DNA from: Minisyncoccota bacterium
Lineage (GTDB): Bacteria > Patescibacteriota > Minisyncoccia > Phycocordibacterales > CAJBRS01
Direction of reading: 5' to 3'
NCBI GenBank assembly: GCA_017881075.1
Contig: JADGRH010000003.1
Coordinates: 64,682-128,681 of the forward strand
Length of the DNA: 64,000 nucleotides
A program made the translations under genes and the position numbers. Below, one piece after another: positions 1,584-62,556 of this stretch. Below the pieces are notes generated by a model that saw only the letters and a program-made list of their open reading frames with translations, was not told the DNA's origin and made no database searches. The first letter of the stretch is position 1, and each line of letters opens with the position of its first letter.

Positions 1584-3242
1584 ATGACTCAAGCAGAAGC
1601 ACTGGATATCTTAAAGATGGGACACAATGTATTTATCACCGGCGCAGCTGGAAGTGGCAAAACTCACACTCTGCGTGCCTATATTGATTATTTGAACAAG
1701 AGCAATGCGAGCGTTGCCATTACCGCATCCACGGGAATTGCGGCTACGCACATTGGTGGTAGCACCATTCACTCATGGAGCGGCCTGGGAGTCCGCGATT
1801 CTCTTTCCGAGCAGGACTTAAGTGAAATGGAAGAGCGACAATATCTCTGGCGACGATATGATCAAGTAAGGATTTTAATAATTGATGAAGTTTCAATGCT
1901 CCATCATTTTCGATTTGATCTTTTGGATAAAATTTGCCGATTTTTCAAAAGAAACGATGCCCCCTTCGGGGGCATGCAAATAGTGCTTTGCGGTGACTTC
2001 TTCCAACTGCCGCCAGTCACCATAATGGGGGAGCCGGAGGCAAGCTTCATTCATAAATCAGATGTTTGGGAAGAGATGAATTTGAAGATCTGCTATCTCT
2101 CCGAACAGCATCGCCAAAATATTGAAGACGAATATTTTAAAATCCTAAATGAGATCCGCGGGAATGATGTCGGCACGGATACATACGAACTCCTACAATC
2201 CCGTCTTAACCAAGAATCCGAATCAAAAATTCCGCCGACTCGTCTCTACACTCACAACATTGATGTTGATGCCGTGAATAACCGCGAGCTCGGAAAGATT
2301 GCGGGGGAGGCAAAAATTTACGCCATGTCTTCCAAAGGAAGGGCCGCTATAGTGGAGACTTTGAAAAAGAGTTGTCTTTCACCGGAGAAACTTTCTCTTA
2401 AAATTGGAGCCAAAGTAATGTTCGTTAAAAATAATTTTGAGAAACATTATGTTAATGGAACATTGGGGATAGTTGTGGCTTATGATTCAGCCGGTTATCC
2501 TATTGTGGAAACTCTTTCTGGAAAGAGGATACTGGCCACACCGGAGAGCTGGATGATAGAAGAAGAGGGCAAGATTAAAGCCGAGATCAATCAAGTGCCG
2601 CTCCGGCTCGCCTGGGCTATTACTGTGCATAAAAGCCAAGGAATGAGCCTTGATGCGGCAGAAATGGACCTATCAAAATCTTTCATTAAAGGGATGGGAT
2701 ATGTGGCTCTTTCGCGAGTGCGTAGTTTAAAAGGCTTGAAGCTACTCGGTATCAATCAAATGGCTCTGCGAGTAGATGAAGGTGTTTTTGAATACGATCA
2801 AACTCTCCGATCACTTTCAAAACAAAGCCAAAGTGAGTTAAAGAAGATGACCGCAAGCGAAATGAAAAAAGAGCAGGGAGAATTTCTGGCGAAAGTTGCT
2901 GGCTCCAAAAAAATTAAGGAAGAAAAAATAGCCACTCATCACAAAACCAAAAATCTTTTGCTCCAGAAGCTCTCTTTGGAAGAAATGGCAGAGGCGCGTG
3001 GGATGACCACCGAGACTATTGTCAGTCATATTGAGAAATTACTAGAGGAAGATCCGTCGTTTGATGTTCAGTATCTTTTCAATGCTAATTTTACTGATGA
3101 GCGTTTTCAGAAAATTGAAAAAGCTTTTGAAAAATCTTTAGCCAAGAATGGCGACTATCGTTTGGCGCCGGTGCGAGGTCTGCTTGGGCCCGATTTTGAT
3201 TATTTGGAACTGCGCATAGCGAGGTTGTTTTTGGGAAAGTAG
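1584..3242 (+). CDS. PIF1/RecD-family ATP-dependent DNA helicase
   Basis: Walker A GAAGSGKT, LIIDEVSM (motif II), FFQLPPV, AITVHKSQG, C-terminal HhH-like tail; typical PIF1-like SF1B motif order. Confidence 0.8.
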   Translation: MTQAEALDILKMGHNVFITGAAGSGKTHTLRAYIDYLNKSNASVAITASTGIAATHIGGSTIHSWSGLGVRDSLSEQDLSEMEERQYLWRRYDQVRILIIDEVSMLHHFRFDLLDKICRFFKRNDAPFGGMQIVLCGDFFQLPPVTIMGEPEASFIHKSDVWEEMNLKICYLSEQHRQNIEDEYFKILNEIRGNDVGTDTYELLQSRLNQESESKIPPTRLYTHNIDVDAVNNRELGKIAGEAKIYAMSSKGRAAIVETLKKSCLSPEKLSLKIGAKVMFVKNNFEKHYVNGTLGIVVAYDSAGYPIVETLSGKRILATPESWMIEEEGKIKAEINQVPLRLAWAITVHKSQGMSLDAAEMDLSKSFIKGMGYVALSRVRSLKGLKLLGINQMALRVDEGVFEYDQTLRSLSKQSQSELKKMTASEMKKEQGEFLAKVAGSKKIKEEKIATHHKTKNLLLQKLSLEEMAEARGMTTETIVSHIEKLLEEDPSFDVQYLFNANFTDERFQKIEKAFEKSLAKNGDYRLAPVRGLLGPDFDYLELRIARLFLGK

Positions 3243-4858: not shown

Positions 4859-6139
4859 ATGAGTATACGTTTCGTTATCTCAGTTATGTTGGTTGGCCTT
4901 TACATGGCCATATCAATCCTGTATCCAGTAGCCCAAGGCCCGATCGAAGGAAAGATCGCGGCCAGTATGGTCCAAGATAGTGATGCGTCTTATGCAGCGG
5001 CTCACGCCCTGCTCACGACGCATTCGCCGATAACCATTATCGGTTGGGCAGTGTTCATAGCATTGCTCGTCATCTGGGTGCCAGTTTTACGGCGCGCCCT
5101 CAAGCGCCCCACTAAAACGGCAGCGACATTTCTCGGGTGTATCGCCTTTTTGGCGACCATTCTCACCACGGGATGTGTGGGACCTTATAAGGTAGAGAAG
5201 TTCGAGACCATCGAATCAAACGAGACGGCCTTCGTCGTTCCCTTGGAGGGTGCGACGCTCGCCAATCAAGCGAAGTTCATGTCTATCGACTATCTCAATT
5301 CGCCTGAAGTGAAAGTGGCGACCAAGCGGATCACTATTCCGCAACGGCAACGCGACACAGGACGGGTGGCCGGTAATTACGAATGGATTGACACCGTTCG
5401 CGTCATCAAGGTAAACCGGGCGCCTATCACCAGACAGTGGGTGAAGGCCTCAACACAAGGCACTTCTAAATCCGACGAGGCCATCGAGGTGGAGTCTAAA
5501 GAGTCAATCGACTTCTACACCGGAGCGGTCTGCAGCGGGTTTATCGCTGAAGAGGATGCGGCAAGGTTCCTCTATTATTTCGCCGGGAAACCTTTAAGCG
5601 AAGTGATGGACGAGAACGTACGCGGGTATGTTCAAAACCTGATGTGGGTGGAGTTTGGTACGCGGGACTTGACCGCTGCCAAAGAGGCCAAGAAAGAGAT
5701 CATGGATGCGGTTTCCAAATCGACGAAGGAGTTCTACTCCAAGCAAGGGATAACGATCTCTTACGTCGGTGGAGCTGAAGGTCTGACCTACAAGGATCCA
5801 AAGATCCAAGAATCCATCAACTCGGCCTTCATCGCCGAGAATGACCGCAAAGTGGCGGATCAGGAGAATCAGGCCCAAACGATTAGGAATACCAAATTGG
5901 TTTCCATCGCTACAGCACAGCGTCAGGCGGCTGAAGAGTTCGCCAAAGCGCAGAATGCCATGATTGCCAAGACCCAGCTCGAGATCCAAATGAAGCAGGC
6001 AGACGCCATGCTGGAGATCGCGCATAACTCGCACGGCATCAGCATCCAACCGGGTGCGATCTTGTCTGAAGGGTCGCCCTTCCTGTTTGGCCTGGATAAG
6101 GTCACGGGAGCTCGGCCGCCGGTCACTGCAAATAAGTAA
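4859..6139 (+). CDS. membrane-anchored SPFH/band-7-like protein (inferred), GC-rich
   Basis: N-terminal TM segments; C-terminal Ala/Gln/Glu-rich coiled coil resembling HflC/K tails; visibly higher GC than the backbone; SD AGGAGA upstream. Confidence 0.45.
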   Translation: MSIRFVISVMLVGLYMAISILYPVAQGPIEGKIAASMVQDSDASYAAAHALLTTHSPITIIGWAVFIALLVIWVPVLRRALKRPTKTAATFLGCIAFLATILTTGCVGPYKVEKFETIESNETAFVVPLEGATLANQAKFMSIDYLNSPEVKVATKRITIPQRQRDTGRVAGNYEWIDTVRVIKVNRAPITRQWVKASTQGTSKSDEAIEVESKESIDFYTGAVCSGFIAEEDAARFLYYFAGKPLSEVMDENVRGYVQNLMWVEFGTRDLTAAKEAKKEIMDAVSKSTKEFYSKQGITISYVGGAEGLTYKDPKIQESINSAFIAENDRKVADQENQAQTIRNTKLVSIATAQRQAAEEFAKAQNAMIAKTQLEIQMKQADAMLEIAHNSHGISIQPGAILSEGSPFLFGLDKVTGARPPVTANK

Positions 6140-8219: not shown

Positions 8220-9350
8220 TTACTCTCTTAGCATCAGCGAGACCGTGTCGGGGAACGTTGTTGTGTAATCCCCGAAGATCTGCATGCCGAAACTTTTCGG
8301 CGTCACTTTGTCCCAAGTGATCTTCTCGTTGGCACCGGCGCCGGAATATGATCCGACACTCATTGGGGATGTGTGGTACTCGACGAAACCTCCCCATGGT
8401 CTGATGAGCTTGTCCTGTAGACGATGTGATTCGTCTGCGAGGAAGTCATGCTTGAGGTGGGGGACAACGCAAATGGCGAAGTCTCCAGCAATGCCGCCAC
8501 CAAGCTGGACGAAAGCCAGCGGAGTTTTGCGGGTCACGTCCATGTAGAATTCCGCGAGCGCATGCATGTACGAAATCCCCGGAAGGACCACGTTCATGTC
8601 GATCGGCGCCTCGATCTTGTAATTTTTCAAGAACCAATGGTCGCCCTTGTAGCACGCCTGAGCAAAAATATTGCCCATCGTAGAATCTTCGAATCCAGGA
8701 ACGAAGAGCGGAATGTCGAGTTTTGCAGCTTTGCGAAGCCAACATTCTTCCGCATTGGCCGTCGGATCTTTTCTGATCAGATCGTGCTTGAACAGGTGAT
8801 AGAAATACTGATGCCAGAGTTTCCGCTCCTTATTTACTCCGGCGATCCTCCATTGCTTCATGAGCTTGGGCAGGATGACTCTGACCGATTCGTCTTCCGG
8901 CAGGATCGTGTCTGTGATTCGGCGGAAACGAAGGCGGCGAAGCTCCTCTTCCTGTTTGGGCGTCAAGGATTGATAGTTGGGAATGTAGACATAATACTGA
9001 TTTGCTGAGAATCGGTAGGCGCTTTCTTCCATGTTCGCGCCGGTAACTGACATTCCGGCGATGTATCCGGCGTCCATCAGTCTGGTGATGGGTACACCGA
9101 GCTGGAATGATGATCCGGCTCCGGCCATTGATAAGAATATCTTGCCGCCCTCTTCGCAGAAATCTCGAAGCCAAAGGCCGGCATCGACAGTTCTTCCTCC
9201 GTTGCAATGGCGCTTGTTCTGGACCAGTGAATTTGAGACGGGGCTGTCTGCGCTGGGGGTATAACGTCGTTCTCCCACAGTGATCATCTTGCGAAGCCCA
9301 GGACTGAGCTGAGCCATTTTTTGTTTAAGGGACATGATTTGATTTGACAT
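8220..9350 (-). CDS. deoxyhypusine synthase-like protein (DHS/homospermidine synthase family)
   Basis: Blocks matching eukaryotic/archaeal DHS: IPLFVPGFEDSTMGNIF ~ IPVFSPALTDGSLGDMIF, LGGGIAGDF ~ LGGGVVKHH, YSGAGANEKITWDKV ~ DSGARPDEAVSWGKI, C-terminal F.D..TTFP ~ YADASLVFP. Confidence 0.7.
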   Translation of the reverse strand: MSNQIMSLKQKMAQLSPGLRKMITVGERRYTPSADSPVSNSLVQNKRHCNGGRTVDAGLWLRDFCEEGGKIFLSMAGAGSSFQLGVPITRLMDAGYIAGMSVTGANMEESAYRFSANQYYVYIPNYQSLTPKQEEELRRLRFRRITDTILPEDESVRVILPKLMKQWRIAGVNKERKLWHQYFYHLFKHDLIRKDPTANAEECWLRKAAKLDIPLFVPGFEDSTMGNIFAQACYKGDHWFLKNYKIEAPIDMNVVLPGISYMHALAEFYMDVTRKTPLAFVQLGGGIAGDFAICVVPHLKHDFLADESHRLQDKLIRPWGGFVEYHTSPMSVGSYSGAGANEKITWDKVTPKSFGMQIFGDYTTTFPDTVSLMLRE

Positions 9351-10754: not shown

Positions 10755-12608
10755 ATGATTCTATATAAAAATAATCTAAAGGATTTTAAAATTCACGTTG
10801 ATACTAATCAGATCGGGGATTTAATCGAGAAATCTTTTAGAGAAAAATTAGGGCACAAAGTTGCTCCAAATGAAAAAAGGTCATGGACTAATTCTATGTC
10901 GTTTATGGAGAAAATAGTCAGAAGGGCTGATCTTTCGGATACTTGCGGAGTTATGTTGGAATATATTATTCCAAACACTTCTAACAGAATCGACTTTTTA
11001 ATTTCCGGGGAAGACGAGAAAGGGAACAAGAATTTTATAATTATTGAATTGAAACAATGGGAAACATCAGAATCTACTGATAGAGATGGTGTAGTAAGGA
11101 CTTTTGTGGGAGGAGGAGTACGCGAAACTACGCACCCATCTTACCAGGCCCATTCCTATAAATTGTTTTTAAGTGACTACAATGAAAATATTGATTCTGG
11201 CATTCTTTCACCATACGCTTGCGCGTATCTGCATAATTATAAAGAGCGGAGTCCGGAGCCTCTAAAGGCTCAAATATATGAATCTGTTATTAAGGTAGCG
11301 CCAGTTTATTTTAAGGACGATTATGAAAAATTGGAGCAGTTTTTGCATAATTATGTTAGGTTCGGAAAAGGAGAAGAAATCTTGTATCAAATTGAAGCCG
11401 GCAGAATAAAACCTAGCAAAAAACTTATTGAGCATATTCAAAAAATGTATGAAGGAAACCAGGAATTTATATTACTGGATGAGCAAAAGGTGGCATATGA
11501 GACAGCTCGATCTGTAGCAAAGAAAGTTAAAGAAAAATCTGTCGTAATTATAAAAGGTGGTCCAGGGACGGGTAAATCTGTAATCTCAATGAATTTATTG
11601 GGAAGCCTATTAAAGGATGAACTTAATGTAAACTTTATTGCCCCTAACTCTGCCTTTAGAGAAGTAATGATTCATAGATTAGCAAGGAAGGAGACTAAAT
11701 TAAGGTTAAAAAACTTGTTTAAAGGCTCTGCTGGTTTTGTAAATGCCAAGAAAGACACATTTGATACTTTAATAGTGGATGAAGCACATAGATTAAAGAA
11801 AAAAGGTGCTTATCAATACAAGGGGATAAATCAGATAGAAGATATCGTTAATTCTGCTAGAACGTCTATCTTTTTTGTCGATGATAATCAGATGATTCGT
11901 CCAGACGATATAGGTTCAGTTCAGGAGATTAAAAGAGTGGCTGATAAAAATAAGGCAAGAATTTATGAAATAGAATTAGTCGCCCAATTTAGGTGTGCTG
12001 GGGCAGAAGGTTATCTTAATTGGCTCGACAATACATTACAGATTAAAGAGACAGCGAATTTTGATGGATGGGAGCAAAAAGATTTTGAGTTTAAGATTTT
12101 TAATGATCCTAACGACTTAAGGAAAATGATAAAAGAAAAGCATGATAAAGGATTTAATGCTCGAATTCTTGCTGGCTATGCTTGGAAGTGGACAAGTGTA
12201 GGGGAGGGCAATAAAAGTGGAGAAGTTGAAGATGTCTTAATCCCCGAATTCGATTTCAAAATGCCGTGGAATGCTCGACAAATTGGAACAACTTGGGCGG
12301 TTGATCCAAAAGGTATTGATCAGGCAGGATGCATTCATACTTCACAAGGTCTGGAATTTGACTACGTTGGAGTTTTGGTAGGCAATGATTTACGTTTTGA
12401 TTCCAAAAAACTTGACTACCATGCTCACTGGGTATCCTACAAAGATACGACGGGGAAAAAAGGGCTGAAAAATAACCCGGAAGAATTAACTAAATTAGTA
12501 AAAAATATCTACAAGGTTCTTATGAGCAGGGGTATGAAGGGATGCTATGTTTATTTTACTGACAAAGAAATGGAGAGATATTTTAAATCACGCTTAGGTA
12601 TCAAATAA
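10755..12608 (+). CDS. nuclease-helicase: N-terminal PD-(D/E)xK-like fold + P-loop SF1-like NTPase + DUF2075-type C-terminal region (Schlafen-helicase / Nhi-like architecture)
   Basis: N-term RIDFLI .. IIELKQWE (D .. ExK); Walker A VVIIKGGPGTGKSVIS; Walker B/DEAH LIVDEAHRL; 4-nt gap after the MazG-like gene (operon). Confidence 0.65.
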   Translation: MILYKNNLKDFKIHVDTNQIGDLIEKSFREKLGHKVAPNEKRSWTNSMSFMEKIVRRADLSDTCGVMLEYIIPNTSNRIDFLISGEDEKGNKNFIIIELKQWETSESTDRDGVVRTFVGGGVRETTHPSYQAHSYKLFLSDYNENIDSGILSPYACAYLHNYKERSPEPLKAQIYESVIKVAPVYFKDDYEKLEQFLHNYVRFGKGEEILYQIEAGRIKPSKKLIEHIQKMYEGNQEFILLDEQKVAYETARSVAKKVKEKSVVIIKGGPGTGKSVISMNLLGSLLKDELNVNFIAPNSAFREVMIHRLARKETKLRLKNLFKGSAGFVNAKKDTFDTLIVDEAHRLKKKGAYQYKGINQIEDIVNSARTSIFFVDDNQMIRPDDIGSVQEIKRVADKNKARIYEIELVAQFRCAGAEGYLNWLDNTLQIKETANFDGWEQKDFEFKIFNDPNDLRKMIKEKHDKGFNARILAGYAWKWTSVGEGNKSGEVEDVLIPEFDFKMPWNARQIGTTWAVDPKGIDQAGCIHTSQGLEFDYVGVLVGNDLRFDSKKLDYHAHWVSYKDTTGKKGLKNNPEELTKLVKNIYKVLMSRGMKGCYVYFTDKEMERYFKSRLGIK

Positions 12609-16102: not shown

Positions 16103-16861
16103 ATGTTCTCAGATCCAATCATTGAAAATTTAAAGTATTACGTTTATATACTTGTTGATCCGAGCAATAATAAGCCTTTTTATATTGGAAAAGGAATAGG
16201 AAATAGGGTTTTTTCCCATCTAAAAAATGAAATTGAAGACGAGTCTAAGATTTCATTAAAACAAGCGCTTATTAAAAATATTCAGGATCAAGGGAAAGAT
16301 GTTGAGATATACATAGTACGACACGGTTTAAATGAGAAGGAGGCATTTGAGATTGAGGCGACACTTATTGATTTTATCCAACTTAGAAATCTTACTAATG
16401 AAATAGTAGAGCACGACTATAAGGAAGAAATACCAGCTAAAAATCTGGCTAATATTGTTTTAGGACATCATGCGGGAGAAAGGGGGCTTATGACGCTAAA
16501 TGAAATACTCCAGTTGTATGGTGCAGAAGAGGCTAATATTACCGACCCAGTAATAATAATTAATATAAATCGAAAATATAAACGGGGCATGAGTCCGAAT
16601 GAAATATATGAAGCAACTCGAGCATCTTGGGTCATAAGCAAAGATAGGTCACAGAAAGCTAAATTTGTTCTCGCATCATTTCGTGGAATAGTAAAAGAAG
16701 TTTTCTATGTTAATCATTGGCAACAATCTAAGAATTCAAACCGCTTAGAATTTGAAGGAGGTGTTGCTCAGTTAGAGATTGCTGAAAAATATAGAAACAA
16801 AGCTATAACTAATTATTTGAAGACGGGGGCACAAAACCCAATTAGATACGTAAATTGTTAG
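16103..16861 (+). CDS. GIY-YIG nuclease domain protein with ~150-aa C-terminal extension
   Basis: YYVYILVDPSNNKPFYIGKGIGNRVFSH .. E (GIY/YIG with Arg, His and Glu); 20-nt gap after the PD-(D/E)xK gene. Confidence 0.6.
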   Translation: MFSDPIIENLKYYVYILVDPSNNKPFYIGKGIGNRVFSHLKNEIEDESKISLKQALIKNIQDQGKDVEIYIVRHGLNEKEAFEIEATLIDFIQLRNLTNEIVEHDYKEEIPAKNLANIVLGHHAGERGLMTLNEILQLYGAEEANITDPVIIININRKYKRGMSPNEIYEATRASWVISKDRSQKAKFVLASFRGIVKEVFYVNHWQQSKNSNRLEFEGGVAQLEIAEKYRNKAITNYLKTGAQNPIRYVNC

Positions 16862-17157: not shown

Positions 17158-17661
17158 GTGGAAAATGAGTTTAAGAATCTTGCTTTTATAGATGGACAGA
17201 ATCTGTATATGGGTACGTCAAAGCGAGAGATCGATCCGTGGGAAATTAACCTTACCCGATTCTGTGTATATCTGGATGAAAAATACAATGTCGGTAATGC
17301 CTATTATTTTTTAGGATATGTGCAGGAGGCAAATCAAGAACTCTACGAAGAAATACAAAAGGCTGGTTTCTTGCTAGTATTTCGAGAACATAATCCAGCG
17401 ATGATTGGGAAGAAAAAAGGAAATGTGGATTCAGATATTGTCTTTCATGTCATGAAAAATCTATACAAGAAAGAGAATTTTAAAAAGATAATCCTTGTTT
17501 CTGGAGATGGTGACTATAAATTACTGGTTGATTTTTTGATAGCAGAGAACCGATTCGAGAAGATATTGTTTCCGAATAGAGAATTTGCGTCTTCTTTGTA
17601 CAAGAAACTCGGTTCGGAATATTTTGATTACTTAGAAAATATAAAGACATATATCACATAA
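17158..17661 (+). CDS. NYN-domain (PIN-like, LabA/YacP-like) ribonuclease
   Basis: AFIDGQNLY .. D .. VSGDGDY signature of NYN domains; terminator hairpin follows at about 17671..17708. Confidence 0.7.
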   Translation: MENEFKNLAFIDGQNLYMGTSKREIDPWEINLTRFCVYLDEKYNVGNAYYFLGYVQEANQELYEEIQKAGFLLVFREHNPAMIGKKKGNVDSDIVFHVMKNLYKKENFKKIILVSGDGDYKLLVDFLIAENRFEKILFPNREFASSLYKKLGSEYFDYLENIKTYIT

Positions 17662-56419: not shown

Positions 56420-56662
56420 ATGGATTCCAATTGGAAAGAAGAAAATAATTTTTTAAAAGCCACCTTTAAATTTAAAGATTTTAAAGAAGCACTTATTTTT
56501 GTAAATAAGGTGGGGGAGTTGGCCGAGCGACAGAATCATCATCCTGATATATGCATCAAGGATTATAACACCGTCACCATCGCCACCACTTCTCACGACG
56601 CCGGAAAGACTGTCACTCAAAAAGACCATGATCTTGCTAAAGCGATTGATGACTTGAGCTGA
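56420..56662 (+). CDS. pterin-4a-carbinolamine dehydratase (PCD/DCoH)
   Basis: F.F.DF.EAL.FVNKV..AE..NHHPD..I..YN.V.I..T.HD; start trimmed to MDSNWKE. Confidence 0.7.
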   Translation: MDSNWKEENNFLKATFKFKDFKEALIFVNKVGELAERQNHHPDICIKDYNTVTIATTSHDAGKTVTQKDHDLAKAIDDLS

Positions 56663-56778
56663 AACAGACCCACCTTTACTTTTGCCCTCCTTTTGAGTAA
56701 TTTGAGACTAGAGTTTCGTTGAAAACTACACAAATTTTCGGTTCAAACACAAACAAAAAAAGGAGAAAGTAGCAGCTT

Positions 56779-59700
56779 ATGATAACAACTCTCTACCAGA
56801 GTAACGGCGATAATCGTCGTGAATTTTGTTTCTGCGTGGAGACTAGTGCTCCGCTCACAGAAACAGAAATGCAGTTATTGCACGGGCTTCTGGCTGAGAC
56901 TTCTCAACCAGAGCTTACCAGAACAAATTCATTTTTGTCTGGCGGTGTAATGCAAGTAGGTCCGCGGCCGGCAGTTGAAACTGCGGCGTCATCAAACGCT
57001 GTGGCCATCTGTCGCTCTTTGGGAATTAACAAGGTGACGCGCATTGAAACTTTGCGCCGATACCTCCTTCCTATGGAAGGTCCATTCGATCGGATGACGG
57101 AGTGTGTCTACAACGTCATTCCTGAATCGTTCACCAATAACACAACTCCCGAGCCAGTCAGCATCATTCCGCTCATCGAGGATGGGCCGAAGGCGCTTCA
57201 AGTCATTAATCGTGACTGGGGTTTGGGCATGGATGACTTCGACATCGAGTTCAATTACGATCTCTTCGCGAACGTCTTCAAACGGAATCCGACAATCGTC
57301 GAGTGTTTCGGTTTGGCTAATGCGAACAGTGAACATTCTCGGCACTGGTTCTTCAAAGGGAAGATGATTATTGATGGCATTCCGATGCCACGCTCGCTGA
57401 TGCAGTTGGTAAAAGAATCACTTCGTCTGCTGGGCCAACATTCAAACAGTGTCATCGCCTTTGCCGATAACTCAAGTGCCATTCAAGGGCGCGAGATCAA
57501 GGTTCTCGTTCCGGCTCAAGTCGGTCCGAGGGCATTCAGTCTGCGACATCGCTTGTACGACATTATCTTCACTGCGGAAACCCACAATCATCCAACGATG
57601 GTTGAAGAGTTTCGCGGGGCTGAGACGGGTACCGGTGGTCGCATTCGCGATATTCAAGCCACCGGTCGCGGTGGTTTAGTGGTTGCGGGAACTGCCGGCT
57701 ACTGTGTCGGCAATCTCTTGATTCCGGGATTCAGTATTTCGGGTGAAAATCTAGATTTCAAATATCCCGAGAAATATCGGCGACCGCTCCAAATTCTCAT
57801 CGGCGCCTCTAACGGTGCTTCCGATTACGGAAATAAATTCGGCGAGCCGCTTATCAACGGCTTTGTTCGAAGTTTCGGTCTCTCTTTACCTAACGGCGAG
57901 CGGCGTGAGTGGATCAAACCAATTATGTTCACCGGAGGCATTGGCCAAATGGAGAGGAGTCATGTAAAGAAACGCAACCCCCAGAAGGGGATGTTCATCA
58001 TTCAGATCGGCGGTCCAGCATATCGGATTGGTCTCGGCGGCGGTGCAGCTTCAAGCATGACTCAAGGACAAAACACCGAGAATCTCGACTTTAATTCCGT
58101 CCAACGCGGCAACGCGGAGATGGGACAAAAAGTGAATCGTGTTGTTCGTGCCTGCGTGGAACTTCGAGAGAAGAATCCCATTCTCTCTATTCACGATCAG
58201 GGTGCGGGCGGACCATGCAATGTGCTTACAGAGCTGGTTCATCCGGCAGGTGGCAAGGTGAATATCCGCGCCATCAATGTTGGTGATACCAGTATGTCGG
58301 TTTTGGAAATCTGGGGGGCGGAGTATCAAGAGAGACTAGCCATTCTTCTTAAGCCGGAGGACCTGGAAATGTTTCAGGAAATCTGTGCGAGGGAAGTGGT
58401 GCCGTGTGAAGTCTTGGGAGAGGTGACGGGCGATGGCAACATCACTGTTTATGACTCTAATGACGGAACAACTCCTGTTAACCTGGTCTTGGATAAAATC
58501 CTTGGCTCGGTTCCGCAGAAAACTTTTCGGTCAGATTATCCGAACATGAAGCTTCAACCACTAGCAATTCCTTCAGAGGAGTCGGTGGGAGAGCTTCTCA
58601 AGAAAGTTCTTCGTCTCCCTTCAGTGGGATCGAAGGGTTACCTCATTCGGAAAGTCGATCGGAGCGTTACGGGTTTGGTTGCGCAGCAGCAGTGCTGTGG
58701 GCCGCTGCATCTTCCTGTTAGTGATTTCGCAGTCTGTGCTCAAAGTCATTCCGATCTCTTCGGTATGGCGACGGCGAACGGCGAACAGCCGATTAAGATG
58801 CTTGTGAATGCGGGGGCGGGCGCTCGGATGGCGATCGGCGAAATGTTGACCAACATCGTCTGGGTCAAGTCGGAAGGATTGGTGACTATTAAGTCGTCAG
58901 GTAATTGGATGTGGCCGGCAAAACTTCCCGGCGAAGGAGCTCTCATTTACGATGCGGCGGCCGCAGCTAGCGACTTGCTCGTCGCACTTGGAGGAGCGGA
59001 AATTGATGGAGGTAAGGACAGTCTTTCCATGGCGGCCAGTTTTGATGGAGAGACGGTCAAAGCACCGGGGCAATTTGTGGTGTCGGGGTACGTCGCCGTG
59101 CCGGATATCACGAAGAAAGTTACGCCCGATCTGAAAAAATGGGGGAAAAGCAAACTTGCTCTCATCGATATATCCGCGGGACAGTCTCGTCTCGGCGGAT
59201 CGGCGCTTGCACAAGCATTTGGACAGATCGGAAACGAAAGTCCTGATGTCGATGGTCCGATACGCCTTCGCCGCGGGTTTGAGGCAGTGCAGGAAATGAT
59301 TGATCAAGGTTTAATTTTGTCAGGGCATGATCGGAGTGACGGTGGCCTCATCGTAGCTTTGGTCGAAATGGCTCTGGCAGGAAATATCGGGATCGATGTG
59401 ATTCTAAAGGGTCAATACGACGAGGTGGCGAGACTGTTTGCCGAAGAGCTTGGTCTCTTGATTGAGTATTTGCCGGAGAAGGAAGAAGAAATTCTCTCTG
59501 TGCTGGATAAACATTTTCAGCATTTACCTCTGGACGAGTGCTTCCATGAGCTCGGCTCTACAACAGTGGACAGCAGAGTGAAGATTGGTTTCGACGGTCT
59601 CGATTCGACAGATGTCGTATTAAATGAAGACCTAGAAACAATTCGCTCCTGGTGGGAAGCGACGAGTGATAAACTCGAGGAGTTCCAGATGAATCCCGAG

Positions 59701-60615
59701 TGTGCGAAAGCAGCTGCGTCTGCTAGACGTCAGCATGTGCCTTGCTCGCATCTCTCATTTACTCCGTCGACAACACCGAAAGAGTGGATGAAGAGGGATG
59801 GTAGGCCAAGAGTGGCAATCGTTCGTGAGGAGGGATCAAACGGCGATCGGGAAATGGCGGCAGCTTTCTACGCTGCTGGCTTTGAGCCCTGTGATGTGCC
59901 AATGGCAGACCTTCTGAAAGGAAAAATTAATCTCAACGATCCTCGCGTGGGGTTCCGAGGAGTCGCCTTTGTTGGAGGATTCTCCTATGCCGACGTCTTT
60001 GGCAGTGCCAAGGGCTGGGCGGCAATCATTCGTTCAAACGAGCGACTGAAAGAGATGTTCGAGACGTTTAAACGACGTTCCGACACTTTCTCTCTGGGAG
60101 TCTGTAACGGCTGTCAGCTGATGGCCATTCTCGGATGGGTTCCGGGAATCGTCGAAGATGAGCGCGACCAATTACGGTTTGTGCACAACACGTCGGGGAG
60201 ATTTGAATCAAACTGGCTGCGTGTGCGAATCGAAAAAAGTCCTGCAATCATGCTTCGGGAAATGGAAGGGTCCGTTCTCGGAGTATGGGTTGCTCATGGC
60301 GAAGGGAGACTCTTTGCTCCAAAGGAAGAGATTCTCCTCGACGTCATTGAAAGGAGGCTAGCGCCGATGGTTTATGTGGATCAAGGGGAAATTTCTACGG
60401 AGTCTTATCCCTTAAATCCGAATGGCTCGCCAAGAGGAATCACTTCACTGTGTTCACCTTGCGGCAGACATTTGGCAATGATGCCTCATCCGGAACGCAG
60501 TTTTCTGAAATGGCAATGGCCGTGGTTGCCCAAAGAAGTGGCCGAAGCCGAAGTCTCGCCATGGCTCCGACTATTCCAAAATGCCCGTGAGTGGTGCGAG
60601 TTAAGAGAAGTGTAG
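56779..60615 (+). CDS. purL: phosphoribosylformylglycinamidine synthase, single-chain large form (lgPurL)
   Basis: 1278 aa; N-terminal PurS-like domain, duplicated PurM-like domains, C-terminal class I glutaminase with GVCNGCQLM; GC visibly above backbone. Confidence 0.85.
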   Translation: MITTLYQSNGDNRREFCFCVETSAPLTETEMQLLHGLLAETSQPELTRTNSFLSGGVMQVGPRPAVETAASSNAVAICRSLGINKVTRIETLRRYLLPMEGPFDRMTECVYNVIPESFTNNTTPEPVSIIPLIEDGPKALQVINRDWGLGMDDFDIEFNYDLFANVFKRNPTIVECFGLANANSEHSRHWFFKGKMIIDGIPMPRSLMQLVKESLRLLGQHSNSVIAFADNSSAIQGREIKVLVPAQVGPRAFSLRHRLYDIIFTAETHNHPTMVEEFRGAETGTGGRIRDIQATGRGGLVVAGTAGYCVGNLLIPGFSISGENLDFKYPEKYRRPLQILIGASNGASDYGNKFGEPLINGFVRSFGLSLPNGERREWIKPIMFTGGIGQMERSHVKKRNPQKGMFIIQIGGPAYRIGLGGGAASSMTQGQNTENLDFNSVQRGNAEMGQKVNRVVRACVELREKNPILSIHDQGAGGPCNVLTELVHPAGGKVNIRAINVGDTSMSVLEIWGAEYQERLAILLKPEDLEMFQEICAREVVPCEVLGEVTGDGNITVYDSNDGTTPVNLVLDKILGSVPQKTFRSDYPNMKLQPLAIPSEESVGELLKKVLRLPSVGSKGYLIRKVDRSVTGLVAQQQCCGPLHLPVSDFAVCAQSHSDLFGMATANGEQPIKMLVNAGAGARMAIGEMLTNIVWVKSEGLVTIKSSGNWMWPAKLPGEGALIYDAAAAASDLLVALGGAEIDGGKDSLSMAASFDGETVKAPGQFVVSGYVAVPDITKKVTPDLKKWGKSKLALIDISAGQSRLGGSALAQAFGQIGNESPDVDGPIRLRRGFEAVQEMIDQGLILSGHDRSDGGLIVALVEMALAGNIGIDVILKGQYDEVARLFAEELGLLIEYLPEKEEEILSVLDKHFQHLPLDECFHELGSTTVDSRVKIGFDGLDSTDVVLNEDLETIRSWWEATSDKLEEFQMNPECAKAAASARRQHVPCSHLSFTPSTTPKEWMKRDGRPRVAIVREEGSNGDREMAAAFYAAGFEPCDVPMADLLKGKINLNDPRVGFRGVAFVGGFSYADVFGSAKGWAAIIRSNERLKEMFETFKRRSDTFSLGVCNGCQLMAILGWVPGIVEDERDQLRFVHNTSGRFESNWLRVRIEKSPAIMLREMEGSVLGVWVAHGEGRLFAPKEEILLDVIERRLAPMVYVDQGEISTESYPLNPNGSPRGITSLCSPCGRHLAMMPHPERSFLKWQWPWLPKEVAEAEVSPWLRLFQNAREWCELREV

Positions 60616-60728
60616 TGTAGGTTGCCCTGTCCGTTCGTACGCGAATGGCCGGGGCACTTTTATTTTTAATTTAGACCAATTTGTTTTTGTTTATATTTCT
60701 GCTAATCTGAATCGAGAAGAATTTCATT

Positions 60729-61400
60729 ATGAGTAGAATAAAAACAGCAAAGTTTGTTGAACCGAACGATCCGGTTCTCACTAGGGTCGCCGAAGAAGTG
60801 TACTTGCCGGAACTTTTTTCTGAGGAGATTTCCGACTATATAGACACCATGTTCTATATGGCGAGGGAGAATCAGTCGAACAGGGGTGAGCGAGTGTTAG
60901 TCGGCCTTGCCGCGCCACAGATTGGCATTTCCAAACGAATCATTCTAGTGGATGTCATTGCCGACGGAGAAGGAGAAGTGGGAGACCTACGTCTCTACAT
61001 CAATCCGAAGATCACTTGGCGCTCGGAAGAGGAGAGCGAGTGGTATGAAGGGTGTTTTTCTACGAGTTGTGTTTGCGGTGTATTTTTACGACCAACCACA
61101 ATAAGGGTTAAGGCTCTGAAAATCGATTGGAAGAAAAAGACCATGGAGACGTCAGAAGAAGAGGAGTATTCCGGTTACGTCGCCCGCATCTTCCAACACA
61201 AAATTGATCACTTAGATCGAAAGGAATTCACCACTCATGTGACGGATCCTGAAAAACTTCACTGGGTAGAGAAGGACGAATTCTTTGAGTATCGTGATAA
61301 GCAGGGCTGGAAAAACTGGCCAAATAAATGCTCTCTCGATGATTGGGAGAAAATCAAACTTTTTGGGCTCCTCGCCCGGAAAGTGATCGCTCGGGAATAG
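60729..61400 (+). CDS. peptide deformylase homolog with catalytic Glu replaced by Lys (QHKIDH) and an internal insertion
   Basis: GLAAPQIG (motif 1), YEGCFS (motif 2), QHKIDHL instead of QHEIDHL (motif 3). Confidence 0.6.
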   Translation: MSRIKTAKFVEPNDPVLTRVAEEVYLPELFSEEISDYIDTMFYMARENQSNRGERVLVGLAAPQIGISKRIILVDVIADGEGEVGDLRLYINPKITWRSEEESEWYEGCFSTSCVCGVFLRPTTIRVKALKIDWKKKTMETSEEEEYSGYVARIFQHKIDHLDRKEFTTHVTDPEKLHWVEKDEFFEYRDKQGWKNWPNKCSLDDWEKIKLFGLLARKVIARE

Positions 61401-61431
61401 GTATTCCGAGCGATTTTTATTTAACAGCTAT

Positions 61432-62556
61432 CTACGCGTGCTCTACAAACGAGAGAGCCATCTTTTGCTCTTTGGCATCAAAGAGAGTGATGCGGAAGGT
61501 GTAGCTTTTGCCGAGCTCCAGTTTTTGTCGGAGTTTTTCTTCACTACCGAATTCGGAGATATGAACGAGGCCGGCGACACCCTCTTCAATGGAAGCAAGA
61601 GCACCATGCTTATTGAACTTAATAATAACAGCTTGAACAACGTCATCTTTTTTATATTTTTTCTCCGCCTCTTTCCATGGATTTTCTTTCAAAGCCTTAA
61701 TGGAGAGAGAAATCTTGCCGTCCTTAATCTCAATAATCTTTACCTTCACTTTATCACCAACGCTGAAAAGGGTTCGCGGATCGTCTATCAACGACCAGTC
61801 AATTTCAGAGATGTGAACCAATCCTTCCAATCCTTCCTCAACTCTGACGAAGACGCCGAAGTCCACCATACCTGTTACTTCGCCTTCCATTTCATCACCG
61901 ACGGTATATTTGCCGATGATTTTTTCTTTATCTTTCAATTCCGGATTCTTTTCGGAGAAAATAAGTTTGCCCTCTTTTGGCAGAGCGGAGATAACGGCAA
62001 CGGAAATTTTCTGGCCAATTAATTTTTTTAGCTCTTCTAAAATCTTGTCCTTGTCGCCATCCATTACCCGAGGGTAATGCTCAGTCTTTAATTGTGAAGC
62101 TGGCAAGAATCCCTGGAGGCCCTGCCAGGTCAAAATAAGCCCACCTTTGTTTGCTTCAATTACAAGAAGATCCAAAATGCGTTTATCGCGAATAGCTGAT
62201 TCCGCCTCGCTCCAAATGAGGGCCTGTTTTGCTTCCTTCAGAGAGAGTTCCAGATATCCTTCAACATTTTCCAAGTCAACAACCTTGGCCGCCACTCGGT
62301 CGCCAATGTTTATTCTCTTAATGATGTCTCGGGCGTTGATGTATTCCTTGCCGTAGATGATACCGGTACCATATGGAGGCAGATCAACAAAAACACCGCT
62401 TTTATCAATAGCGATAACAGGACCTTCCACAAGGTCTCCGACACTTGGAGGAGTGACGGAATCATTGAGGAATTTCCCCATAGCGTTTTCTTTTTTTGGT
62501 TTAGCCTCTTTTTCCTGTTTTTCTACTTCAGCTTGGGCTGTAATTGTTTTTGGCAT
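61432..62556 (-). CDS. rpsA: 30S ribosomal protein S1 (four S1 domains)
   Basis: repeated S1/OB motifs: GD.V.G.V..I...G.FV.L..G..GL.HISE. Confidence 0.75.
   Translation of the reverse strand: MPKTITAQAEVEKQEKEAKPKKENAMGKFLNDSVTPPSVGDLVEGPVIAIDKSGVFVDLPPYGTGIIYGKEYINARDIIKRINIGDRVAAKVVDLENVEGYLELSLKEAKQALIWSEAESAIRDKRILDLLVIEANKGGLILTWQGLQGFLPASQLKTEHYPRVMDGDKDKILEELKKLIGQKISVAVISALPKEGKLIFSEKNPELKDKEKIIGKYTVGDEMEGEVTGMVDFGVFVRVEEGLEGLVHISEIDWSLIDDPRTLFSVGDKVKVKIIEIKDGKISLSIKALKENPWKEAEKKYKKDDVVQAVIIKFNKHGALASIEEGVAGLVHISEFGSEEKLRQKLELGKSYTFRITLFDAKEQKMALSFVEHA

Follow-up and report, generated by a model that had tools for sequence, protein, structure and literature searches.

The window analysed here is a 64-kb stretch of a 197,977-bp contig, and in most respects it is an ordinary Patescibacteria chromosome, carrying leuS, tsaD, ftsZ, ftsA, ybeY, a hisS-like gene, lepB, pth, rpsA, nrdAB, murJ and lepA. 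Towards its right end, an open reading frame of 223 amino acids (60729-61400, plus strand) encodes a homologue of peptide deformylase (PDF) belonging to a PDF family typical of Paceibacterota; we refer to the gene as def. Upstream of it lies purL (56779-60615, plus strand), whose Pfam domains identify a large-type FGAM synthase of 1278 amino acids. The pair is bounded on the left by a gene for pterin-4a-carbinolamine dehydratase (56420-56662, plus strand; 65% identical by tblastn to the Pterin_4a gene of L007, a contig from a relative) and on the right by rpsA, encoding ribosomal protein S1 (61432-62556, minus strand; recognized by its Pfam S1 domains and 85-91% identical to the rpsA genes of relatives), which is convergent with def. 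A promoter-like site matching the consensus (TTTAGA, a 16-nt spacer and TATATT; 60670-60697, plus strand) precedes the def start by 32 nt. At the other end, a terminator-like hairpin with a 12-bp stem followed by TTTATTT (61385-61415, plus strand) overlaps the def stop codon and is common to the convergent rpsA.

The def product matched the Pfam family PF01327 (Pep_deformylase) with an E value of 5.6e-30; its score of 104.4 bits exceeds the gathering cutoff (22.8), and the match covered positions 3-154 of the 156 in the profile. Its best sequence match in the PDB was 3uwa (1.3e-19). An AF2 model (pLDDT 87.7, pTM 0.86) predicted the α+β fold of PDFs, and when this model was submitted to Foldseek the top PDB matches, among them 6jf9, 6jfe and 3uwb, were all PDFs, with E values around 1e-12 and target-normalised TM scores of 0.8-0.87. 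Against the equivalog model TIGR00079 the protein scored 86.7 bits, compared with a cutoff of 103.95, a shortfall that may be a trait of the whole family; it also fell under the cutoff of each of the remaining NCBIfam PDF equivalog models.

Motif 1 (VGLAAPQIG, residues 58-66; 60900-60926, plus strand) is intact, with VGLAAPQ (residues 58-64) satisfying the pattern φ-G-φ-A-A-x-Q of motif I; the core GLAAPQ was found in 120 of 120 family sequences. Motif 2 (EGCFS, residues 107-111; 61047-61061, plus strand) aligns with EGCLS of E. coli PDF and retains the metal ligand Cys109. Its Phe is the family norm, EGCFS being present in 98 of the 120 sequences (the window protein and 119 listed relatives). 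Motif 3 reads QHKIDHLDR (residues 156-164; 61194-61220, plus strand), and alignments with PDB entries place both of its histidines, His157 and His161, at the usual positions. All the metal ligands (Cys109, His157 and His161) are thus retained, as is Gln64. Motif III has been defined as HExxH-φ-xG (PMC12690207), and the sequence HKIDHLDR does not match it, the catalytic Glu being replaced by Lys158 and the conserved Gly by Arg164. Lys158 is specified by an AAA codon (61200-61202, plus strand), which a single G-to-A transition would derive from the Glu codon GAA. In HMMER alignments it lies opposite the catalytic Glu in the QHEIDH motifs of 3uwa (from cyanophage S-SSM7), 1q1y (from S. aureus) and 2okl, and it aligns with Glu133 of the E. 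coli enzyme. The initial annotation had described motifs 1 and 2 as intact and motif 3 as having Lys in place of Glu, and both descriptions are borne out; it had also allowed that motif 3 might have been misregistered, which the alignments to solved PDFs show not to be so.

A further claim, that def carries an unusual Cys-containing insertion of about 35 residues, did not hold. The segment concerned (TSCVCGVFLRP...YSGY) is canonical PDF core, equivalent to E. coli residues ~93-126, and in an alignment of 16 family members with E. coli PDF it matches the β-core column for column. Cys116 is at least 90% conserved in that alignment and invariant in another of 67 sequences, and Cys114 is also present in some relatives. 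The sole real insertion is of six residues (~KKTMET; 61137-61154, plus strand), opposite which all 17 other aligned sequences have a six-column gap; it adjoins the substitution G134W and is placed by the model in a distal β-hairpin turn between strands 124-133 and 138-148. Beyond the core comes the Trp/Cys-rich C-terminal extension of Paceibacterota PDFs (61230-61361; consensus LHWVEkxEFpxYRnxxGWRNWPnKCxrxkWxxIKG). The window protein has both this extension and the family core EGC[FY]S-T-x-x-VCG, and H178, W179, V180, E184, Y188, R189, W194, W197, C201, W206 and K210 are invariant. Past the usual family end (...IKGI) follows a private tail, FGLLARKVIARE (61362-61397, plus strand), identified from the alignments and modelled with low confidence (pLDDT 60-66). 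This tail of ~12 residues runs into the terminator hairpin, within whose 12-bp stem structure the stop codon lies. The arrangement suggests that the 3′ end of def was remodelled when the gene landed at its present site.

The 119 closest homologues listed were 201-242 amino acids long, came from Paceibacterota/Patescibacteria MAGs and metagenomes, and were 54-62% identical to the window protein over 91-100% of its length; five relatives at 55-61% identity were found among GTDB representative genomes. Every one of the 119 had the motif QHE[IVT]DH, so that among the 120 sequences Lys158 was present only in the window protein. This refutes the suggestion that the lineage as a whole uses an atypical catalytic arrangement, and disposes of the related proviso that HKIDH might be uniform in related organisms. 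On identity or shared residues, P0081, P0016 and P0002 were candidates for the closest def, but they were set aside, since none of them has the Lys or the synteny of the window lineage or comes from its sample.

Lys158 is not the only unusual residue. At columns conserved in at least 95% of sequences, the window protein differed at 6 of 77 (G47E, E48N, V119F, G134W, E158K and G164R), compared with a family median of 1, and three of these (V119F, E158K and G164R) affect positions that were invariant in all 119 relatives. Position 119 (61083-61085, plus strand), where the window protein has Phe, aligns with Val100 of E. coli. The ratio of deviations at conserved sites to those at variable sites was 0.156, the second highest of the 120 and to be compared with a median of 0.027. 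In a neighbour-joining tree of the family the window protein had the longest terminal branch (0.32, median 0.128), which is partly due to the absence of close relatives from the sample. On the other hand, the six changes at conserved sites are to be set against ~38 expected if changes were spread evenly across sites, the frame is intact, and 71 of the 77 highly conserved residues, including all the metal ligands, have been kept. Judged from the sequence, constraint on def appears to be relaxed or shifted, but not collapsed.

Other PDF-like sequences lacking the catalytic Glu were found at greater distances. An exact scan of metagenome contigs with degenerate DNA encoding FQHKIDHL gave 43 matches, only one of which was in a PDF, a fragment on contig L039 unrelated to the Paceibacterota family, and no clade of HK-type PDFs emerged. 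This fragment (L039:425-823, plus strand; JGI Ga0209217_1058150) reads EGCLSIPG...ARIFQHKIDHLDG and likewise has Lys where the catalytic Glu would be expected. No in-frame motif 1 precedes it, and it may be an exon of a eukaryotic gene or a pseudogene. Among 150 diverse representatives of the wider family, Ala or Gln occupied the Glu position in four PDF-like proteins bearing signal peptides. These four (P0375, P0405, P0456 and P0493) have N-terminal signal-peptide-like segments, carry QHAIDH, QHAVDH, QHQVDH or LHQMDH in place of the usual motif, and are partly degenerate in motifs 1 and 2 (e.g., GLSAPE and ECCLC), with the C-terminal LHWVE...W..W extension kept. They may constitute a secreted pseudo-PDF subfamily. 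PDF-fold proteins without the Glu thus recur in the wider family.

Comparison with relatives indicated that purL and def occupy a lineage-specific insertion. DNA homology with L007 ends at position 56662, at the stop codon of the pterin-4a dehydratase gene, and resumes at rpsA. In the four contigs from relatives whose Pth is 72-90% identical to that of the window, lepB and pth are followed by a pterin-4a dehydratase gene or a short ORF, then by rpsA in the opposite orientation, Lactamase_B_3 and gyrA, and purL and def are absent. This order, pth-(pterin_4a)-rpsA without purL or def, is that of L007, L008, L014 and the JGI contig of P0129. Because homology with L007 breaks at these points, and because the relatives have neither gene there, we take the 4.77-kb segment from the dehydratase stop to the rpsA stop (56663-61431) to be a lineage-specific insertion. 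No direct or inverted repeats flanking its borders were found.

In the closest relative for which a long contig was available (GCA_035652395.1; 462,702 bp), def is flanked by CofD and rbfA/infB, at a distance of ~14 kb downstream from pth. The genome of the window remains syntenic past the window end, where Logan contig L015 carries gyrA, a methyltransferase, SBP and pilin genes, but L015 ends at a window-equivalent position of 69473, and the expected CofD-def-rbfA site would lie ~5 kb beyond this. The position of def is variable among family members generally, so relocation without duplication is possible.

The degree of identity between def genes also bears on their relationship. Compared with GCA_035652395.1, 13 flanking orthologues were 54-87% identical and def, at 56%, was near the bottom of the range without being an outlier, ybeY being 54% identical. 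In the family alignments the window def was no closer to the def of that genome, being 57-59% identical to it and up to 62-63% identical to those of more distant genomes, whereas Pth was clearly closer: its identity to relatives was 84-90% with two contigs of JGI samples 3300067032 and 3300061213 and, varying with the alignment method, ~72-76% with two NCBI MAGs, values far above those for def. Ratios of def to Pth identity were lower in pairs that included the window genome than in other genome pairs. The low identity of def against the closeness of Pth would fit either acceleration of the gene or a non-orthologous copy.

The co-inserted purL has an overall GC content of 51%, compared with a window mean of 42.6%. 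Its closest homologue is 64% identical and comes from a Paceibacterota MAG, followed by homologues in Actinobacteria and Acidobacteria MAGs at ~59%. It is orphan-like in that no other purine-biosynthesis gene, and no Formyl_trans_N, was present among the 50 window ORFs scanned. The GC3 of def is +1.1 SD, and that of purL up to +1.2 SD, in a window that is itself heterogeneous, and deviations in GC3 and codon usage are ~1-1.5 SD. Codon usage in def is average for the window, and its composition thus gives no indication that the gene was acquired recently from a foreign source. Transfer of purL and def together from one donor was considered and rejected: the purL nearest in identity (64%, in GCA_035491955.1) has Formyl_trans_N, not def, as the next gene downstream, and the members of the def family that were examined never adjoin purL.

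When the 64-kb window was searched in six frames with an HMM of the family, def itself was the one hit (9e-102) and nothing else scored below E = 1, so that the earlier statement that this is the only def-like gene in the window stands. No fmt was found in the window either, a regular expression for fmt motifs giving no match and Pfam detecting no Formyl_trans_N domain among the 50 ORFs. The DNA of this genome available to us comprised the window and a further 5.4 kb.

In PDFs the Glu of the HEXXH motif (Glu133 in E. coli) is the general acid/base, activating the metal-bound water and protonating the leaving amine. The substitution E158K would remove this proton-shuttling residue, while G164R would break the Gly of HLxG and V119F would replace the invariant Val. 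Deformylase activity without the Glu would be expected to be little or nil, whereas the fold and metal binding are probably kept, and binding of formyl-Met peptides perhaps so, the backbone that binds the substrate having been retained. Provided that the substitution is real, we consider it quite likely that canonical catalysis has been lost, a view based on mutagenesis of other PDFs. No data for Glu-to-Lys mutants were found in the literature on Glu133 mutants, in which usable full text is sparse. We propose that the def lying beside purL in the 4.8-kb insertion arose by duplication or relocation, and that it came under relaxed or altered constraint. The reading that we prefer, with a probability of roughly 55%, is that def is a catalytically dead or crippled copy of PDF, private to this lineage and either extra or relocated, and that a canonical def elsewhere in the genome does the housekeeping; the existence of that second def we infer to be somewhat probable. 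The initial annotation had suggested a pseudo-enzyme or altered paralogue, and this is favoured by the six changes among 77 conserved columns, the longest terminal branch, the lineage-specific insertion of the locus, and the location of def elsewhere in the relative; its argument from a 35-residue insertion within the protein falls away.

Several other explanations have to be weighed against this. One is that the population truly has GAA (Glu), the AAA codon having arisen through a mistake in consensus calling or assembly, or coming from an uncommon strain captured in the MAG. One G-to-A transition would suffice, and the sequence is from one sample only; every neighbouring protein that was looked up was either the sole full-length member of its 90% cluster or absent from the collection. 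However, contig L001 of an independent Logan assembly of SRR10489828 matches 3,725 bp of the window without a single mismatch, the AAA codon included, and the codon is thus reproducible between the assemblers of the NCBI MAG and of Logan. Moreover, the Lys is accompanied by V119F, G164R, three further changes at columns conserved in at least 95% of sequences, the six-residue insertion and the new tail, and because single-base errors cannot yield such accompanying changes, an indel and a tail, an artefact is most unlikely; we regard E158K as very probably real. A second explanation accepts the substitution but holds that the genome has no def other than this one, the ancestral gene having moved beside purL and its activity being lost or waning because deformylation became dispensable, for example once formylation of Met-tRNAfMet (by fmt) was lost or weakened; in a variant of this, a residual trickle of activity would be enough for a slow-growing symbiont. 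We found no other def, fmt-like gene or Formyl_trans_N in the 64 kb, the location of def is not conserved across the family and its codon usage is native-like, and it is established from work cited in PMC12690207 that loss of fmt makes def dispensable in other bacteria. On the other side, 64 kb plus 5.4 kb is little of a genome, and absence from it says little; preservation of the frame and of 71 of the 77 conserved residues argues against long-standing dispensability; the relatives retain a canonical def; and reference genomes without PDF number only 31, of which 29 are from endosymbionts (PMC12690207). We consider a sole def unlikely.

It is also conceivable that the protein is an active enzyme with altered chemistry or substrate, in which the nearby metal would lower the pKa of Lys158 and so allow it to act as the general base, or another formylated or acylated molecule would be the substrate, V119F and G164R reshaping the pocket. 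Most of the core has been retained under purifying selection, as have Gln64 and the metal ligands, and three of the six conserved-site changes are in or beside active-site motifs. The substrate of PurL, FGAR, is itself formylated, a link to def that is speculative. Yet we know of no active HKXXH metallohydrolase, and the window protein is a singleton, the scan for its motif having found one unrelated fragment and no clade. Exact conservation of the motifs is not always needed for activity, and the type 3 PDFs of T. brucei are active (PMC12690207), but replacement of the same Glu by Ala (E133A) inactivates B. subtilis DefA (PMC11194573), and altered chemistry is in our judgement highly improbable. 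A related suggestion, which we consider improbable, is that the gene for the protein with Lys158 is not decaying but has been kept by selection for a PDF-fold protein that is not a deformylase, binding formylated N-termini or the ribosome, or partnering PurL on an FGAR-like molecule. The signal-peptide-bearing relatives with QHA or QHQ motifs (P0375, P0405, P0456 and P0493) hint at a recurrence of PDF-fold proteins without the Glu in the wider family. A precedent for a non-catalytic role is B. subtilis DefA, which has a function that is independent of catalysis: DefA with the E133A mutation still inhibits the kinase PtkA (PMC11194573), so that a PDF lacking the Glu can keep a biological role. 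That protein, however, is an engineered mutant of an active Firmicute enzyme with a kinase partner, and there is no pointer to such a partner here.

The favoured reading, a dead or crippled copy beside a canonical one, can be placed among known PDFs as follows. With canonical Def proteins (PF01327; type 1B, as in E. coli, P. aeruginosa and S-SSM7) the window protein shares the fold, motifs 1 and 2, and both His residues of motif 3; it differs in having Lys for the catalytic Glu and Arg for the Gly of HLxG, and the Trp/Cys-rich extension of the Paceibacterota family replaces the ribosome-binding helix of type 1B. With the PDFs of Paceibacterota/Patescibacteria (P0002-P0120, for example that of Candidatus Taylorbacteria PLXZ01000003.1) it has in common EGCFS, VCG-x-x-RP and the C-terminal extension, but in that family it alone has the Lys, and it differs also in V119F, G164R, G134W, G47E, E48N, the six-residue insertion and the ~12-residue tail. 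[quoted passage not shown] Accessory copies of PDF are common and often horizontally mobile (PMC12690207). However, in type 3 PDFs the substitutions are in motifs I and II, whereas the def product has kept both of these and deviates in motif III; the window protein belongs phylogenetically to the local Paceibacterota family and not to a separate type like type 3; and accessory PDFs coexist with a canonical PDF, whereas no second copy was found in the 64-kb window.

If def is an accessory copy, the more likely case, it would add one more example to a class of degenerate PDFs already known, and would be notable for a broken motif III rather than motifs I and II, and for travelling with an orphan purL. 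If, on the other hand, the Lys is genuine and the organism has no other def, it would represent a free-standing bacterial lineage without canonical N-terminal deformylation, with consequences for PDF as an antibiotic target and for our view of translation in Patescibacteria with reduced genomes. As a single sequence from one metagenome, it also cautions against the functional annotation "peptide deformylase".

Elsewhere in the window, two ORFs at 4859-6139 (plus strand) and 8220-9350 (minus strand) have GC3 values of 0.62-0.64, compared with a window mean of 0.43. They are more deviant than purL or def and are possibly foreign genes; the product of one resembles deoxyhypusine synthase, and that of the other matches nothing in Pfam. 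Proteins resembling a Schlafen-group-3 helicase (10755-12608), a PIF1 helicase (1584-3242), and GIY-YIG (16103-16861) and NYN (17158-17661) domain proteins, all on the plus strand, are encoded amid low-GC ORFs without Pfam matches, in what is possibly a region of defence genes or mobile DNA. Beyond the window, arrays of small T4SS_pilin (PF18895) genes, each with three to six members, were observed at L015:5431-6549, L008:17353-19620 and L014:17685-20029, and the placement of such an array after gyrA, the methyltransferase gene and SBP is conserved in the window lineage and its relatives.
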